From contig JAYWGW010000059.1 of assembly GCA_043778045.1 (NCBI GenBank), forward strand, positions 552 through 64,551: a stretch of 64,000 bases of DNA, written 5' to 3'. Position numbers and translations under genes: made by a program. Below are positions 14,073 through 27,159 of the stretch, in pieces. The notes beneath the pieces were generated by a model that ran no database searches, was not told the DNA's origin, and saw only the letters and a program-made list of their open reading frames with translations. Position 1 is the stretch's first letter. Each line of letters begins with the position of its first letter. This stretch comes from Bacteroidota bacterium. GTDB taxonomy: Bacteria > Bacteroidota > Bacteroidia > Flavobacteriales > Flavobacteriaceae.

Positions 14073-15064
14073 ATGCAAACGTAAGGTATAGTATTTCTGT
14101 TGTTTTGCCAAATTATAATGGCAAATCGCTTATGGAACAGTACATTCCATCGATTTTAGCCGCGCTGAATTTTTCGAAAATTGACTATGAATTTATTATT
14201 ATTGACGATTTTTCCACGGATGATTCCGTAAATTTTATAGAAAAAACGTATCCAAATATTTTATTGCTTAAAAACGATGTAAATAGTGGCTTCTCTAAAA
14301 CTTGCAATAACGGCATTTTCAAAGCGAAAAAAGATTTGATTTTTTTGGTAAATTCAGATGTGAAATTAACTGAAAACTATTTTGAAAATCAGTTGCAATA
14401 TTTTGATGACATCAATGCATTTGGCGTTATGGGTTGCATCATGAATTTTGACGGAAAAAAAATTGAAGACGGCGCAAGAATGCCTCGATATAAAGGTGGA
14501 AAATTTAAAGCCAATAAATTTTATTACTCAGAAAACCCACAAGATAAAATATACACTACTTATCTTTCAGGCGCAAATGCGCTAATTAAAGCTGATAAAT
14601 TGAAGCAAATTGGAGGTTTTTCAGAACTTTATTCGCCGTTTTATTTTGAAGATTTTGATCTCGGTTTGCGCGCATGGCAAATGGGATGGACTTGTTTTTA
14701 TGACCATCAATCGGTTTGTTACCACCGAGTTAGCGCATCGACCAATAATATGAACAAATCTAATTTTGTTAAAATCACCTACAATCGGAACAGTTTCTTT
14801 TTGCAAGCGATACATTTACAAGGACTTAGAAGAATCGTTTGGCTCTGTCAATTATTTACAACAACATTGTTTTCTCACTTATTGAAAGGTGATTTTTGGA
14901 TTTTAAAAAGTTTGCGCGATTTTGTAAACTCATATTCAGTTGTAAAGAAAGCTCAAAAAGATTTAAATTTATTAAAATCTAAATTCAACAGCGATGTTAA
15001 TTTAGATAAAATAGTCAATATTATTACAAAGTCCATAGAAAATAAAGACATTAATTGGCTGTAA
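14069..15064 (+). CDS. GT2 family glycosyltransferase
   Basis: VVLPNYNG, IDDFSTD, NSGFSKTCN, VNSD and EDFDLGLRA motifs. Confidence 0.88.
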   Translation: MNANVRYSISVVLPNYNGKSLMEQYIPSILAALNFSKIDYEFIIIDDFSTDDSVNFIEKTYPNILLLKNDVNSGFSKTCNNGIFKAKKDLIFLVNSDVKLTENYFENQLQYFDDINAFGVMGCIMNFDGKKIEDGARMPRYKGGKFKANKFYYSENPQDKIYTTYLSGANALIKADKLKQIGGFSELYSPFYFEDFDLGLRAWQMGWTCFYDHQSVCYHRVSASTNNMNKSNFVKITYNRNSFFLQAIHLQGLRRIVWLCQLFTTTLFSHLLKGDFWILKSLRDFVNSYSVVKKAQKDLNLLKSKFNSDVNLDKIVNIITKSIENKDINWL

Positions 15065-21576: not shown

Positions 21577-22357
21577 TATTTAAAATGGATTTTAATACAC
21601 TTATATCGGCATTTAGATGATTTTGTTTTTCAAAATGATCGTATGTAAAGTCTAATTTTTTCGGAGCAATGCTTTGAACAAATTCCATAATTTTTTGTGA
21701 TTTTCCTGATGCAATATTGATTGTTCCTATTGTATTTTTTTCAACAAGTTTAATTATGATGTCACAAACTTCGTCAGCATTCAAAAAATCTCGTGTCGAT
21801 AAAGCTCCAAATAGTTGAAATGGTTTTGTCAAATCTTCGTTTTGAAACCTTTGTATTAGGTTAGGATATAAAAAAGGTGGCTTTTGCGTTTCATGATAAA
21901 AACTAAATATTCTACCAATGCATAAATTAAAATTAGAATTATTTTTTTCATAATCATTCAAAACCAACTCACTCATATATTTCGTCAGTCCATAGGAATT
22001 TATTGGCGCTACTGCGTCATTTTCCTTCAGTGGATTTTCAGTGCTTTTATAAACATGACTGCTACTTGCATAAAAAAAATAAATGGGTCTGTTCAAATGC
22101 GAAATTGCCTTTATTAAATTTATTGTACCCGAAACATTCACTTCATAAGCAGTTGGTAAGTTATTTTGAACGTCTTTTACAGCAACTTTCGAAGCAAGAT
22201 GAATGATTTTTGATATTGGATTTTCGGTCAGCCAATTTTTTATATCGCCAGAATTTGTAATGTCGCCATCAAAAACAGAGACGTTGATGTTGCTTTCTAA
22301 AAACTTAGTTACTAATATTTTGCCTAAAACACCATTTCCGCCTGTAATGCCAATCAT
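21569..22357 (-). CDS. Short NAD(P)-dependent sugar epimerase/reductase (extended SDR)
   Basis: ITGGNGVLG, IIHLAS, YASSSHVY and YGLTK (YxxxK) motifs. Confidence 0.85.
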   Translation of the reverse strand: MIGITGGNGVLGKILVTKFLESNINVSVFDGDITNSGDIKNWLTENPISKIIHLASKVAVKDVQNNLPTAYEVNVSGTINLIKAISHLNRPIYFFYASSSHVYKSTENPLKENDAVAPINSYGLTKYMSELVLNDYEKNNSNFNLCIGRIFSFYHETQKPPFLYPNLIQRFQNEDLTKPFQLFGALSTRDFLNADEVCDIIIKLVEKNTIGTINIASGKSQKIMEFVQSIAPKKLDFTYDHFEKQNHLNADISVLKSILNND

Positions 22358-22399
22358 TAATATGAAATATTAAAAGTATCTTTTTTATAACCTGATATG

Positions 22400-22407
22400 C
22401 AAATATA
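22400..22407 (-). promoter_or_regulatory. -7 promoter element of the leftward glycan operon
   Basis: caaatata = TATATTTG on the minus strand, with a TTTG (-33-like) about 12 nt further upstream. Confidence 0.55.
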
Positions 22408-22478
22408 AGTTAATTTGGCAAAAAACGTAGTAGTCATTTTTAAAACATTTTATATGCTAAACAAAATTATAAAGTCAA

Positions 22479-22486
22479 TATCTTTG
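22479..22486 (+). promoter_or_regulatory. -7 promoter element of the Sua5/YrdC gene
   Basis: TATCTTTG 17 nt before the ATG. Confidence 0.55.
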
Positions 22487-22503
22487 CTAAAAATTTTCTA
22501 TTA

Positions 22504-23070
22504 ATGGACATCAACACTGAAATTCACAACGCATACGAAGTTATCAAAGAGGGTGGTATTATTCTCTACCCAACCGATACGGTGTGGGGCATTGGTTGCG
22601 ACGCTACAAACGAAGAGGCGGTTGCAAAAATTTATGCGCTTAAACAACGTGCCGAAACGCAAAGCATGATTTGCCTGATGAATGGCGAAAAAATGATATA
22701 TAATGTGTTTGCCTCCATTCCAGAAGTGGCATGGCAAATTTGGGATTTGTCCGAAAAACCAACAACTTTAATTTTAGACAAACCAAGAAACATTGCCAAA
22801 AATATCATCGCAACTGACAATACTTTGGGTGTTCGTTTGGTAAAAGAACCATTTTGTTTTAAGTTGATGGAACGTATGAAGCGTCCGTTGGTTTCCACAT
22901 CGGCAAACATTTCGGGACAACCAACGCCCAAAAATTTTGCAGAAATTAGTCCAGAAATCAAAAACGGAGTGGATTATATTGTGAATCTTCATCAAGAAAA
23001 AACAGAAGGAAAACCATCAACGATTATAAAAATTGCATTGGACAATCAAGTGAAGGTGATTAGAAAGTAG
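22504..23070 (+). CDS. Sua5/YciO/YrdC family (L-threonylcarbamoyladenylate synthase-like) protein
   Basis: YPTDTVWGIGCDA, IYALKQR and PLVSTSANISG motifs. Confidence 0.92.
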   Translation: MDINTEIHNAYEVIKEGGIILYPTDTVWGIGCDATNEEAVAKIYALKQRAETQSMICLMNGEKMIYNVFASIPEVAWQIWDLSEKPTTLILDKPRNIAKNIIATDNTLGVRLVKEPFCFKLMERMKRPLVSTSANISGQPTPKNFAEISPEIKNGVDYIVNLHQEKTEGKPSTIIKIALDNQVKVIRK

Positions 23071-23103
23071 TAGGTATTAAGTATTTAGTATCAAGTAGTA
23101 AGG
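23066..23103 (+). repeat. Heptamer array (gtattaa-like), left half
   Basis: gtagtaggtattaagtatttagtatcaagtagtaagg; continues in the same orientation at 25717-25790. Confidence 0.65.
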
Positions 23104-23172
23104 CAGACGTTGGTAAAAATGCAACCGAAAAACTAAAAATAACCAAATATTTAAAAGTCTATTTTTATAAAA

Positions 23173-23913
23173 ATGAATGAAATAAATCCTTCAATAAAAC
23201 ATCAGTTGACAATTGGAATTTTTATCAGTTTTTGGTGTTTCATTTTCGCATATTTTATCAAACCATTTGATGATGGATCAATCAGTTTAACGCAATGGAT
23301 TCTCATAAGTGTTGGTTTTAGTCTTATTTCATTTCTATGTTATGCATTAATTGCAGTAATTCAGAAAAATGTTTACGAAAAATTATTAAAATGGAATATT
23401 GTTTTTGAAATAATAATACTTCTAATTTTTAATTTACTTTTTCTAATATTAACCTATTTATATTATAAATGTCCAATTCTAAATGGAGGATTTGGCTTTT
23501 TGAAATTTTTACAAGTAATCATTCTTAAATCTGCTTTAATTTCAACTCCAATTATAGTTTTAGCAAGGATATATGCTGTTAAGTTAATTCCAATACAAGA
23601 CGAAAATATAATTATTAGAGGAGAAAACAAGATAGACTTTTTAAAAATAAGAAAAAGCGACTTGGTTTGTGTGTCTAACTCTCAGAATTATGTAGAAATC
23701 TTCTATATGGAAGAGAGCCAAATAAAAACAAAATTAATTCGTAGTACACTTAAAAAAGTTCAAAAAGATTTTGATTTTTTAGCTCAAATCCATCGCTCAC
23801 ATTTGATAAATCCATCTCATTTTAAAGCTTGGAAAAATCAAGAAACTATATTTTTGACTCAAATTGAACTTCCTGTTTCTAAAAATTACAAGGAGCATTT
23901 ATTATCCTTATAA
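23173..23913 (+). CDS. Membrane-anchored LytTR-family transcriptional regulator (no receiver domain)
   Basis: Four hydrophobic N-terminal segments, then a LytTR domain (SNSQNYVEI, RSTLKKV, QIHRSHLIN, LPVSKNY). Confidence 0.85.
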   Translation: MNEINPSIKHQLTIGIFISFWCFIFAYFIKPFDDGSISLTQWILISVGFSLISFLCYALIAVIQKNVYEKLLKWNIVFEIIILLIFNLLFLILTYLYYKCPILNGGFGFLKFLQVIILKSALISTPIIVLARIYAVKLIPIQDENIIIRGENKIDFLKIRKSDLVCVSNSQNYVEIFYMEESQIKTKLIRSTLKKVQKDFDFLAQIHRSHLINPSHFKAWKNQETIFLTQIELPVSKNYKEHLLSL

Positions 23914-23918
23914 TTTTC

Positions 23919-23992
23919 ATACCTAAAACGACATACTTTATACCTAATATCTCATTACTCACTATACATCGGTGGTTTCTCATCTATTTTTG
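23919..23992 (+). promoter_or_regulatory. Putative LytTR tandem operator plus -7 element
   Basis: atacctaa at 23919 and 23940 (exact 21-bp period); TATTTTTG at 23985-23992. Confidence 0.55.
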
Positions 23993-24018
23993 CATCTCAA
24001 ATCAAAATTAAAAAAATC

Positions 24019-25527
24019 ATGAAAAAGGTGTTATTTAGGAGATTGCTGTCTGTTGGTATTGTATTGTTTTGCATTTTTTTTTGGTCTTGTAGCGAACTAA
24101 CAAAGGTTTTAGGAAAGTCGACAAAAGTTATTGATATTGGTTCAATTGTTAATCCAACTCAACTAATTCAAATAAAAAATGTAAATATACTATCAGAAGA
24201 TTGTGGTTATTTCATTAAAAATCAAAACGTAATTCTTAAAAATGGCATTATAATTAATTTAGGAGAAAACCTACAAATGGATAGTACCGCTACCATTATT
24301 GACGGAACAGATAAATATTTAATTCCTGGTCTTATTGATTCTCATGTTCATATAAAAGAGAGTAAAAACGATTTATTTTTATATTTAGCAAATGGCGTAA
24401 CATCTATTAGAGAAATGGCTGGAAGACCAATTGCATTAGAATGGAAAAAAGAACTACAAAAGAACGGTATTGGACCAAGAATGTTTGTGGCATCGCCACC
24501 AATATATAGTTTTAGTGGATTAAAAGGTTATTTTTATCAATGGTCAAGACAGTCTGTCAATTATTCTAATAAAGCAGAAGCTGAAAAAAAGATAAAAAAA
24601 TTAAAAGATCAAGGATATGACGCACTCAAAATGTACGGTTTTGTGAATCCAGAAATGTTTAAAACAACAATAGCGATTGCTAAAGATTACAATATCGCTG
24701 TTATTGGTCATATTCCATTAGTGGATTTAGAAACATTTTATATATCAGGTCAAAAAGAGGTTGCTCACATTGAAGAATTAACAAAAATAATAATTGACAA
24801 TTTTGGAAAATCAATTAAAAATAATCCGGAGGAATTTCTCACTTACTTAAAAATACGTTCAGATGAAATTGCAAAAAAACTAAAGGCGAACAATATTAGT
24901 GTTACTACAACTGTTTGGTTATGTGAGAGTTTTTTGAATCAAAGATTTGACTTAAAGTTAAAACTTAAAGAAATAGAATTAAAATATGCCAATCCAAAAA
25001 TTATTGAAGGAACGCCACTTTACAAATTGGGCTGGTTACCAGGTAGAAACGGATATGAATATGATGGAAAAGACGACCCTAATGCAAAAAAATTATCATT
25101 AATTTATTGGAACACTTATGCAGAAGCCATTCATATTATGACAAAAGCTCTTGTCGATAATAACGTTGCCGTTATGGCTGGAACAGATGCCAATGTAGCG
25201 ACTGTTGTACCTGGGTTTTCATTGCACAATGAATTAGAATCTTTATCTAAATCTGGAATGACCAACTCACAAGCAATCTATTCGGCAACGGTTGAACCAA
25301 GCATTTGGATGAAACGGAATACCGGAAAAATAAAAGTTGGATACAATTCAGATTTAGTGCTACTATCAAAAAACCCATTAGAGGATATGAAAAATACAAA
25401 AACAATTGAATATGTTTTTTTTGACAAAAATATGATTGATAAAGTTCAAATCACAACTATTTTGAAAGCAATAGAAGAAGCGAATAATGAAAATAGAAGT
25501 GTAAAAATTGATGAATATATTAAATAA
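24019..25527 (+). CDS. Amidohydrolase family protein, probable lipoprotein
   Basis: Hydrophobic leader ending FWSC; IIDGTDKYLIPGLIDSHVH, GTDAN, LHNELE and SDLVLL..NP motifs. Confidence 0.85.
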   Translation: MKKVLFRRLLSVGIVLFCIFFWSCSELTKVLGKSTKVIDIGSIVNPTQLIQIKNVNILSEDCGYFIKNQNVILKNGIIINLGENLQMDSTATIIDGTDKYLIPGLIDSHVHIKESKNDLFLYLANGVTSIREMAGRPIALEWKKELQKNGIGPRMFVASPPIYSFSGLKGYFYQWSRQSVNYSNKAEAEKKIKKLKDQGYDALKMYGFVNPEMFKTTIAIAKDYNIAVIGHIPLVDLETFYISGQKEVAHIEELTKIIIDNFGKSIKNNPEEFLTYLKIRSDEIAKKLKANNISVTTTVWLCESFLNQRFDLKLKLKEIELKYANPKIIEGTPLYKLGWLPGRNGYEYDGKDDPNAKKLSLIYWNTYAEAIHIMTKALVDNNVAVMAGTDANVATVVPGFSLHNELESLSKSGMTNSQAIYSATVEPSIWMKRNTGKIKVGYNSDLVLLSKNPLEDMKNTKTIEYVFFDKNMIDKVQITTILKAIEEANNENRSVKIDEYIK

Positions 25528-25534
25528 ATGCACG

Positions 25535-25718
25535 TCTGCCAACAGCGGTTTGCTTCGCCTGTTCGCTCCTTCGGGCTCGGGTGTCGCAACTGGGGTTTGA
25601 GGCAATTCGCCGCGGCAAATGGTTTTATTTTACCGCGGCGAATGGTTTTTTATTCGATATATTAGGCTAACCACACCCCTTTGCATAGGCGGAACGCCAA
25701 GCCAAGAGACGGTGTATG
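25535..25718 (+). mobile_element. attC-like long imperfect palindrome ending the LytTR-amidohydrolase unit
   Basis: tctgccAAC-agcggtttg...gccaagccaagagacggtgt, starting 7 nt after the stop codon; nested inverted repeats and an internal 23-nt tandem duplication. Confidence 0.5.
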
Positions 25719-25790
25719 TATTAGGTACGAAGTATTAAGTAGAAGGTATTAAGTAATAGATCTTATGCATTAAGTTTTAGGTATTAATTA
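25717..25790 (+). repeat. Heptamer array (gtattaa-like), right half
   Basis: gtattaggtacgaagtattaagtagaaggtattaagtaatag...ggtattaa. Confidence 0.65.
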
Positions 25791-25828
25791 AAAATTAAAA
25801 AGTTGCAGTCTACAAATTTATCATATTG

Positions 25829-25877
25829 AAATCCAACAATCTAAAAATCCAACAGTCTAACAATCCAACAATCCATT
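25829..25877. repeat. Octamer array (aatccaac-like) after the mazG stop
   Basis: aatccaac aatctaaa aatccaac agtctaac aatccaac aatccatt. Confidence 0.7.
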
Positions 25878-25878
25878 C

Positions 25879-26652
25879 TCAAATCTTCTTCGCTTCATTC
25901 CAAAAAACATCCATTTCAGCGAGTGTCATGTCCATCAGCGGTGTGCCTAATTGGTCTGCTTTAGACTCCAAATATTGGAAACGTTTAATAAATTTTTTGT
26001 TGGTTCGTTCCAGTGCGTCTTCAGGATTTATATTTAAAAATCGTGCGTAATTTATCAGCGAAAAAAGGACATCGCCAAATTCAGCTTCCATTTTTTCTGG
26101 GTTTTTGGCATCAACTTCATCTTTAAATTCTTGCAATTCTTCTTGAACTTTTTCCCAAACTTGCTCAGAATTCTCCCAATCAAATCCAACTGCTTTTGCC
26201 TTGTCTTGGATGCGACTTGCTTTTACGAGCGCGGGCAGACCTTTCGGAACGCCTTCCAAAACTGATTTTTTACCTTCTTGAAGTTTTAGTTTTTCCCAGT
26301 TTTGTTTGACTTCATTTTCGTCATTTACAGTAACATCACCATAAATGTGAGGATGACGATGAATCAGTTTTTTACAAATCTCGTTGCAAACATCTGCTAT
26401 GTCAAACGAATTTGTTTCAGATCCAATGCGCGCATAAAATACGATATGCAACAATAAATCGCCTAATTCTTTTTTAATTTCCGTTAAGTTATTGTCTAAA
26501 ATAGCGTCGCCAAGTTCATAGGTTTCTTCAATTGTCAAATGCCGAAGCGACTGCATGGTTTGCTTTTTGTCCCATGGACATTGCTCACGAAGCTCGTCCA
26601 TAATGTTTAGCAATCTTCCAAAGGCTTGCAATTGATTGTCTTTATTTTGCAT
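25879..26652 (-). CDS. mazG: Nucleoside triphosphate pyrophosphohydrolase MazG
   Basis: LREQCPWDKKQT, EETYEL, ELGDLL, KLIHRHPH and EFGDVLF motifs. Confidence 0.96.
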   Translation of the reverse strand: MQNKDNQLQAFGRLLNIMDELREQCPWDKKQTMQSLRHLTIEETYELGDAILDNNLTEIKKELGDLLLHIVFYARIGSETNSFDIADVCNEICKKLIHRHPHIYGDVTVNDENEVKQNWEKLKLQEGKKSVLEGVPKGLPALVKASRIQDKAKAVGFDWENSEQVWEKVQEELQEFKDEVDAKNPEKMEAEFGDVLFSLINYARFLNINPEDALERTNKKFIKRFQYLESKADQLGTPLMDMTLAEMDVFWNEAKKI

Positions 26653-26680
26653 GATGTATGAATTTTAGTTATAAAAATAT

Positions 26681-26711
26681 CAAAAAAATCCTATCAAAAA
26701 ATTGATAGGAT
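26681..26711 (-). terminator. Intrinsic terminator after the DUF5606 gene
   Basis: atcctatcaa-aaaa-ttgataggat stem followed by a T run on the minus strand. Confidence 0.75.
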
Positions 26712-26733
26712 AAATGTTTACATTTTCAAAAAA

Positions 26734-27159
26734 TTACTGCTCCGTTTCTACTTCAACTTCTTCTTTTATTGGTGTTTCTTTTGAGACTAATCCTTTGGCT
26801 TGCAAAATATTGTACCAATTTATAATTTTTTTAATATCAGAAGCATAAACGCGATCTTGATCATAATCAGGCAAAACTTCAAGAAAATATGCCATAAGTT
26901 TTGCATTGTCTTCTTTGTGAGAAATCGCAGAACCTTCATTTTCCTTTACGGCAATGTTTCTAAGCACTTCTGAAAGTGGTTTTTCTTCCGTTTGTGTATA
27001 AACAGAAATTTCAGATAGTAAACTCACATTGCTACGCAGCCCTACTGTGATTTTTTTTCCATCTAAAAAAGATTCGGCTACAAATCCAGTTCTTGTTTGA
27101 ATTTTCAAAGAATAAAGTCCAGGTTTTCCTGCAATTGCTAATATTTTTTCTACGTTCAT
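26734..27159 (-). CDS. DUF5606 family protein
   Basis: ILAIAGKPGLY, LSEISVYT, PDYDQDRVYASDIKKIINWYN; start MNVEK at 27159. Confidence 0.85.
   Translation of the reverse strand: MNVEKILAIAGKPGLYSLKIQTRTGFVAESFLDGKKITVGLRSNVSLLSEISVYTQTEEKPLSEVLRNIAVKENEGSAISHKEDNAKLMAYFLEVLPDYDQDRVYASDIKKIINWYNILQAKGLVSKETPIKEEVEVETEQ

Follow-up and report, generated by a model that had tools for sequence, protein, structure and literature searches.

A probable stray two-gene cassette of an integron-like system with a non-IntI recombinase, inserted between sua5 and mazG

The locus described here lies in a 64 000-nucleotide window (C59:552-64551) of a 3.1-Mb draft genome with a GC content of 34%, which the names of homologous proteins assign to Flavobacterium; positions are given in window coordinates, contigs of this genome (G000) are denoted C, comparison genomes carry other G numbers, and L145-L150 are metagenome contigs. 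Within the window, a segment of 2602 nt on the forward strand (23110-25711) carries a LytTR-family regulator gene, an amidohydrolase-superfamily gene and a GC-rich attC-like element, and has a GC content of ∼0.27, compared with 0.34 for the genome and 0.37-0.39 for its flanks. We consider it roughly 80% probable that this segment is a single mobile gene cassette which belongs to an integron-like system of gene capture in Flavobacterium and stands alone between two housekeeping genes. In our view the locus holds a stray cassette with two genes and its own regulation, from an integron-like system whose recombinase is not IntI. A first-pass annotation, made from the sequence alone, had proposed that a cassette-type site-specific system placed a sensor-effector module at this position, and that proposal is supported by empty sites in close relatives, by a family of related elements, by arrays of them and by a dedicated tyrosine recombinase.

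Sites without the cassette were located through proteins 89-91% identical to the product of the sua5-like gene on the left flank (22504-23070, forward strand, GC ∼0.39; Sua5/YciO/YrdC family, threonylcarbamoyl-AMP synthase-like, PF01300 at 161 bits). L145, L146, L147, L149 and L150 share the upstream polysaccharide genes and the convergent mazG of the window (nucleoside triphosphate pyrophosphohydrolase; 25879-26652, reverse strand, PF03819 at 129 bits), and contain neither the cassette nor an element. The gap between sua5 and mazG in these empty sites measured 136 nt in both L145 and L146, 120 nt in L147, 215 nt in L149 and 24 nt in L150. The empty interval that had been anticipated in close relatives was thus found, and the insertion point falls inside a tract of heptamers.

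This tract is split by the cassette. The left part (23067-23109, forward strand) reads gtagtag gtattaa gtattta gtatcaa gtagtaa ggcagac g and is homologous to the tracts of the empty-site relatives, which likewise start gtatcaagtaNtaag and then diverge; the right part (25712-25790, forward strand) reads gtgtat gtattag gtacgaa gtattaa gtagaag gtattaa gtaatag and so on. Both contain in-phase GTAnnnn units on the same strand, five at 23067-23101 and six at 25718-25759, with degenerate units continuing to ∼25790. In the whole 3.1-Mb genome, where ∼0.01 would be expected, there are only five tracts with at least five such units in phase; the two that flank the cassette are among them. The left register (23067+7k, in which 23109 starts a heptad) coincides with the right one (25711+7k), so that deletion of exactly 23110-25711 rejoins one continuous, in-phase tract; the intact tract would read ...gtagtaaggcagacGGTgtatgtattag... 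The first-pass suggestion that a single tract had been split therefore stands, as does the agac-type left junction that it described, gcagacGTTGGTAAA, whose G lies at 23109. As a separate observation, heptamer-periodic tracts follow the sua5 stop codon in many Flavobacterium species (L036-L064, L145-L150), and their unit sequence and length change fast, from none in L150 to ∼19 units in the window.

The same spot is occupied differently on contig L148, whose Sua5 protein is identical to that of L147. Here ...gtatcaagtattaagaa (...taagaa|) is followed by GTTGGCAGTAATTTT and then by a different open reading frame (ORF), which stands behind GTTGGCAG. This is a second cassette at the same position, which suggests that the site is preferred rather than random. 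One spot that is empty, filled with one cassette or filled with another across close relatives amounts to direct comparative evidence for cassette movement. Looking up proteins identical to Sua5 and MazG led only to the window-like arrangement, and no empty site was found among the species representatives of the genus; in the 13 of these that have both genes on the same contig, the two are divergently oriented at a distance of 8-25 kb. The convergent adjacency is accordingly a feature of a sub-clade, and the rearrangement that produced it is older than the cassette because the empty-site relatives share it. In the representatives cca often lies directly downstream of sua5; in the present genome it is located on C20, behind a gene of 675 aa.

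The element that ends the cassette (25539-25711, forward strand, 173 nt) occupies most of a non-coding, GC-rich stretch (∼25530-25715) between the amidohydrolase gene and mazG, and belongs to a multi-copy family, scoring 139 bits with covariance model R1. Its 5' box, AACAGCGGTTTG, and its 3' box, CGCCAAGCCAAGAGACG, enclose a nested extra module of 31 nt, a GC-rich hairpin with a T-run behind it, and a central box, TTCGATAtATTaGGCTAACCA. BLAST and hidden Markov model searches from 13 seeds recovered ∼18 copies in the present genome, 17 of which follow a co-oriented ORF with a GC content of 0.22-0.30 at a distance of 10-30 nt. Most are found between convergent conserved genes, and short arrays are present on three contigs. 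Model R1 detected the family in at least 86 of 121 Flavobacterium genomes, a lower bound because just 23 candidates were scored per genome. The copies follow a common plan, opening with nnnnnnnAAC-AGCGGTTTGGCG-CAATTGGGGTTTTAGGCAA, continuing with one or two variable GC hairpins and T-runs, and closing with TTCGATACATTTGGCTAAYCAAATCCC, a variable hairpin and CGCCAAGCCACGAGAC-G. Alignment A1 together with the G054 copies defines the inverse core as AAC and the core as GTT (nnnnnnnAAC-AGCGGTTTGGCG ... CGCCAAGCCACGAGAC-GTTnnnnnnn). Further copies of the palindrome beside gene ends, which the cassette proposal predicted, thus occur genome-wide, and in relatives they form arrays.

The elements often form long arrays on one strand. 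In the complete genome G050 at least 23 of them share a strand over ∼30 kb, each close behind a low-GC ORF; some of these cassettes hold two genes, and the array starts ∼1.3 kb after a gene for a 345-aa recombinase. Arrays of the same kind are present in G054 and G016. In neighbouring elements of an array, the stretch following GAGAC-GTT in the first is reverse-complementary to the stretch preceding AAC-AGCGG in the second, as in the pair GTTACCTGCT and AGCAGGTAAC. Across three genomes, 41 of 53 consecutive element pairs match at 9-10 of 11 positions, while 689 non-consecutive pairs have their mode at 7 of 11 (Mann-Whitney p = 6e-25). In integrons the 3' half of the core stands at the start of a cassette and matches the inverse core in the cassette's own site. 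The complementarity along these chains, between GTT with the 7 nt after it and the 7 nt before AAC with AAC itself, is this signature.

The gene pair of the window is itself found in such arrays. In G013 and G164 the LytTR and amidohydrolase genes lie within same-strand arrays of R1 elements, and both genomes read (A/G)AC|GTTG directly after the preceding element. In G013 that element ends 98 nt before the LytTR start (...CCAAAAC|GTTGGCAC), and homology with the window starts exactly at ACG|TTGG; in G164 the boundary reads ...CATGAC|GTTG. The corresponding boundary in the window is an R'-like core, GTTGGTAAAAATGC (23109-23122, forward strand), with the crossover probably after G23109. At the other end the amidohydrolase stop codon (TAA, 25525-25527) is followed by an R''-like inverse core, GCACGTCTGCCAAC (25530-25543, forward strand), which includes TCTGCCAAC at 25535-25543. 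Its counterparts after the orthologous stop codons are ATCTGCCAAC, again including TCTGCCAAC, in G013 and CCTGCCAAT in G164, and each heads a diverged element.

The unit is far from any integrase, but a candidate recombinase is encoded on another contig of the present genome, C80, and the genome is not integrase-less. The protein is an Xer-like tyrosine recombinase of 353 aa, 41% identical to the 345-aa protein of G050. In its platform (C80:12176-16286) the recombinase gene is followed by a gene whose 178-aa product has an N-terminal NusG domain (54 bits), and then by a boundary GTTGGCAGAT at 14256. Behind this comes a first, two-gene cassette, which encodes an HTH protein and a 387-aa protein and closes with an element at the contig end, whose R'' ATCTGCCAAC matches GTTGGCAGAT at 11 of 12 positions. 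A dedicated NusG paralogue could let transcription pass the hairpin and T-run modules of an array. Among 121 genomes, 62 had both recombinase and elements, 10 the recombinase only, 24 elements only and 25 neither (odds ratio 6.5, p = 1.4e-5). In at least eight genomes (G000, G050, G112, G044, G105, G042, G074 and G006) elements follow closely behind the recombinase gene in the same orientation, and the element-free genomes contain only XerC/D-level paralogues (∼31% identity). Homologues at E <= 1e-45 were found in 59 of 201 genomes and in 35 of 69 sampled genera of the order. Many of these homologues were reported with one in-frame TAA inside the aligned stretch.

The first-pass annotation had suggested looking for an IntI-like tyrosine recombinase; one linked to cassettes was found, and it is not IntI. 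Its best family matches were archaeal XerA/'integron integrase' (196 bits, cut-off 220), IntI, XerD and XerC. The IntI model TIGR02249 gave 178 bits against a cut-off of 265, and covered only model positions 7-178 and 242-315. Compared with solved structures, the C80 recombinase aligned in one piece to Pyrococcus XerA, its best PDB match, and in two pieces to Vibrio IntIA (2a3v), skipping residues ∼202-249, which form the IntI-specific insertion. Catalytic-looking motifs supplying Arg, His-x-x-Arg, His and Tyr were recognized in the structure alignment (GLRVSE, HSLRHSFATH, LGH and LLYT). The system behaves like an integron but has no IntI insertion, and by the integrase test that defines integrons it would not be counted as one.

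These data are consistent with the following sequence of events. In the parent system an Xer-like tyrosine recombinase heads one-strand cassette arrays, in which each cassette starts with TT and a further ∼7-10 nt complementary to the bases preceding AAC of its own element; this complementarity means that an excised circle would carry a complete hairpin site. The recombinase would excise a cassette from an array as a circle, whose site would be made of R'' (GCACGTCTGCCAAC), the element and R' (GTTGG...). A C80-type recombinase, the presumed catalyst, would then exchange strands after the core G with chromosomal ...GGCAGACG|GT... inside the heptamer tract, and the products would be ...GACG|TTGG... 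on the left and ...GAGACG|GT... on the right. The site may recombine as a folded single strand, the crossover base named above is the probable one, and the event was presumably an insertion here rather than losses elsewhere. Folded as DNA together with its cognate R', a G054 site is predicted to form an R stem of 16 bp and an L stem with a one-sided bulge of 4 nt (TCTC on the bottom strand) between them, and in this fold the bulge could act in place of the extrahelical bases of attC.

Several observations weigh against assigning the window segment to this system. The R' and R'' cores of the window cassette match at 7 of 11 positions, which is the background level, since unrelated element pairs typically match at 7 of 11. 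Over 14 positions the two form 10 Watson-Crick pairs and one G-T pair, and the agreement of the complement of TCTGCCAAC with the left junction at 7 of 9 positions, on which the first-pass annotation had drawn, is real but does not rise above the same background. The right junction reads G|GT and not G|TT, and the breakpoints cannot be mapped to the base in the empty sites because the intergenic tract is too diverged at 89-91% Sua5 identity. In two of the four other species with the gene pair (G081 and G023) no recognizable element stands beside it. The imperfect palindrome of ∼180 nt at the window (AACAGCGGTTTG ... CGCCAAGCC..GACG) exists as described in the first pass, but it folds only modestly better than shuffled sequences, with z-scores of -2.3 for the top strand and -2.9 for the bottom strand. 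Covariation above shuffles was absent from 14 copies of the present genome, in which hand-drawn helices were 72-76% paired; with no compensatory changes, what speaks for the fold is the consensus and the array flanks. RNAalifold returned no consensus structure for these 14 copies, because the alignment is gappy. None of the models tested accounts for a perfect 9-bp inverted repeat, GGCAGACGT (23102-23110) and ACGTCTGCC (25532-25540), which straddles the left junction and the R'' flank.

That repeat could be read as the terminal inverted repeat (TIR) of a transposon, the alternative offered in the first-pass annotation. The repeat is real, perfect and GC-rich in an AT-rich context, with an estimated chance of ∼0.01 for two short windows, yet there is no transposase in the unit, and excision at the repeat would leave behind the 173-nt element, which is located downstream of the right arm; the empty sites have no such element. 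Because the DNA absent from the empty sites extends beyond the repeat, the repeat was rejected as a transposon boundary, and a transposon of this kind is scarcely credible. Part of the repeat is explained by the likeness of the left flank to the constant AGACG|T box; the remainder may be chance, target mimicry or the trace of an earlier resident. Within the element itself, the ACGTCT of the R'' flank is able to pair with the AGACGT of the 3' box. A self-spreading element, of the MITE or REP type or a 3'-UTR RNA or terminator module, that moved to gene ends while the gene island was acquired separately would fit its modular and mosaic make-up, the nested 31-nt module that recurs elsewhere in the genome, the T-run that comes after an 11-bp GC stem on the coding strand, and the lack of covariation. 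Independent transposition could not produce the chain-complementary flanks of consecutive elements, R'' travels with the amidohydrolase gene in three species, and genes and element are both missing from the empty sites. Nor was a target-site duplication present at either cassette junction; Rfam 15 gave only a chance miRNA hit (E = 0.24) across 22000-27000 of the window, and a terminator scan found no intrinsic terminator in the window element. We regard such an origin as very improbable.

Somewhat more deserving of consideration, though still unlikely, is that the segment is the remnant of a small local array or ancestral hot spot, from which relatives lost their cassettes, or that the block came by homologous recombination in the flanks. 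Neither course would involve a new recombinase-mediated insertion at a naked secondary site. The different cassette in L148 would fit such a history, as would the resemblance of the 7 nt before GTT (gcagac-g) to element 3' ends (GAGAC-G, CAAAAC-G and CATGAC-G), and the copies of the present genome are diverged and look decayed. Against it, no remains of an element were seen in any of the five independent empty sites, a clean deletion leaves the heptamer tract in phase, and where other cassettes stand alone or come first (C73, C80 and L148) their left flanks are unlike element ends. Insertion of a single cassette into the heptamer tract is the reading retained here.

The system resembles sedentary chromosomal integrons, for example the Vibrio superintegron, and CALINs (IntI, attI, attC) in several respects. 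In both, low-GC cassettes that mostly hold a single gene form long arrays on one strand, each cassette ends in an imperfect palindrome with AAC at its 5' end and GTT at its 3' end, the first bases of a cassette are complementary to its own site, the elements are homogeneous within a genome, and a tyrosine recombinase stands at the array head; the best NCBIfam and PDB matches of the Flavobacterium recombinase include integron integrases. The differences lie in the recombinase, the sites and the cassettes. The Flavobacterium recombinase lacks the IntI insertion (∼202-249 of VchIntIA) and scores below the IntI cut-offs; its gene is co-oriented with the array, whereas intI is divergent, and in the present genome it is followed by the NusG-like gene. 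The Flavobacterium sites are 130-190 nt long and have conserved internal boxes, and a 4-nt asymmetric spacer would stand in for the classical extrahelical bases. Integron cassettes are promoterless and lie under a common Pc, whereas the window cassette has its own regulator and promoter-like motifs. Integron integrases have been reported to insert cassettes into genomic attG sites, whose core is GWT, and so to give rise to SALINs of a single cassette (10.1101/2022.09.11.507474). The window resembles these in having a single cassette with one attC-type site, far from an integrase and between ordinary chromosomal genes, and a target barely att-like beyond a short G-N-T core; it differs in the recombinase family, in a probable target of GGT instead of GWT and in an apparently preferred site. 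With Xer recombinases (XerC/D and archaeal XerA) the Flavobacterium protein shares the catalytic domain and a SAM-like N-domain. It differs in an extra N-terminal stretch of ∼78 aa, and in being a third recombinase beside housekeeping XerC/D-level paralogues (∼31% identity), tied to arrays and not to dif.

Cassette recombination is considered to require the IntI-specific domain. IntegronFinder 2.0 reported Bacteroidetes with integrase-alone elements and one Salinibacter integron only (PMC9024848). A widespread cassette system in Flavobacteriales breaks two expectations, that integrons are near-absent in Bacteroidota and that the IntI domain is essential; it would widen the definition of integron-type gene capture and would explain why standard surveys missed the arrays. 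No description of the system was found within the full-text literature searched. We lean towards the view that Flavobacteriales possess their own lineage of integron-like platforms, in which an Xer-like recombinase that never had the insertion considered necessary for recognition of folded attC DNA, or lost it, moves self-regulated and even multi-gene cassettes and can insert them at favoured secondary sites, the heptamer tract behind sua5 being one example. On that view the locus would be a natural case of such activity in three states.

The first gene of the cassette (23173-23913, forward strand) encodes a one-component regulator of 246 aa with ∼140 hydrophobic N-terminal residues, likely forming four membrane helices as judged by eye, followed by a C-terminal LytTR DNA-binding domain (PF04397, 30.7 bits). 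Its orthologues, 76-84% identical, adjoin the amidohydrolase gene in four other species. The second gene (24019-25527, forward strand) encodes a protein of 502 aa (PF01979 at 57 bits, and PF07969) with an N-terminal signal and a lipobox-like ...FFWSC; its NCBIfam matches were weak, the best being Xaa-Pro dipeptidase, which scored 64 bits where the cut-off is 500. Orthologues at 70-79% identity occur in 9 of 200 other genomes of the genus, with three more distant matches at 30-39%, and in four of the nine a LytTR gene lies upstream with equal spacing. The spacer between the two genes (23918-23992, forward strand) contains CATACCTAA (23918), TATACCTAA (23939) and TATTTTTG (23985-23992). All five genomes with the pair keep this arrangement, two CATACCTAA boxes 21 bp apart and then TTATTTTTG. 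We take a 21-bp spacing to be typical of LytTR sites and TAnnTTTG to be the Bacteroidota -7 motif, and on sequence the boxes would fit a LytTR activator site with a Bacteroidota-type -7 box. The spacer repeats and the TAnnTTTG-type motif make the cassette look self-regulated. It carries a membrane LytTR regulator, the likely target promoter of that regulator and a secreted amidohydrolase; a regulator and its target gene in one cassette are a complete sensor-effector module and not a promoterless gene. The reverse complement of the spacer repeat box, TTAGGTA, is also present in the right flanking tract (25720 and 25779), and the regulator might therefore bind outside its own cassette too.

The nested module of the window element (25552-25583) is one of a set of 31-34-nt sequences of the form TTGCTTCGCCTGTTCGC..loop..GCTCGGGT and is nested in three element copies. 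Besides the window, such modules were located at C52:21211, C90:553, C67:3019, C29:14952, C66:23749, C38:15117, C72:314 and C20:6637. At six other places the module stands alone, which indicates a separate small repeat family.

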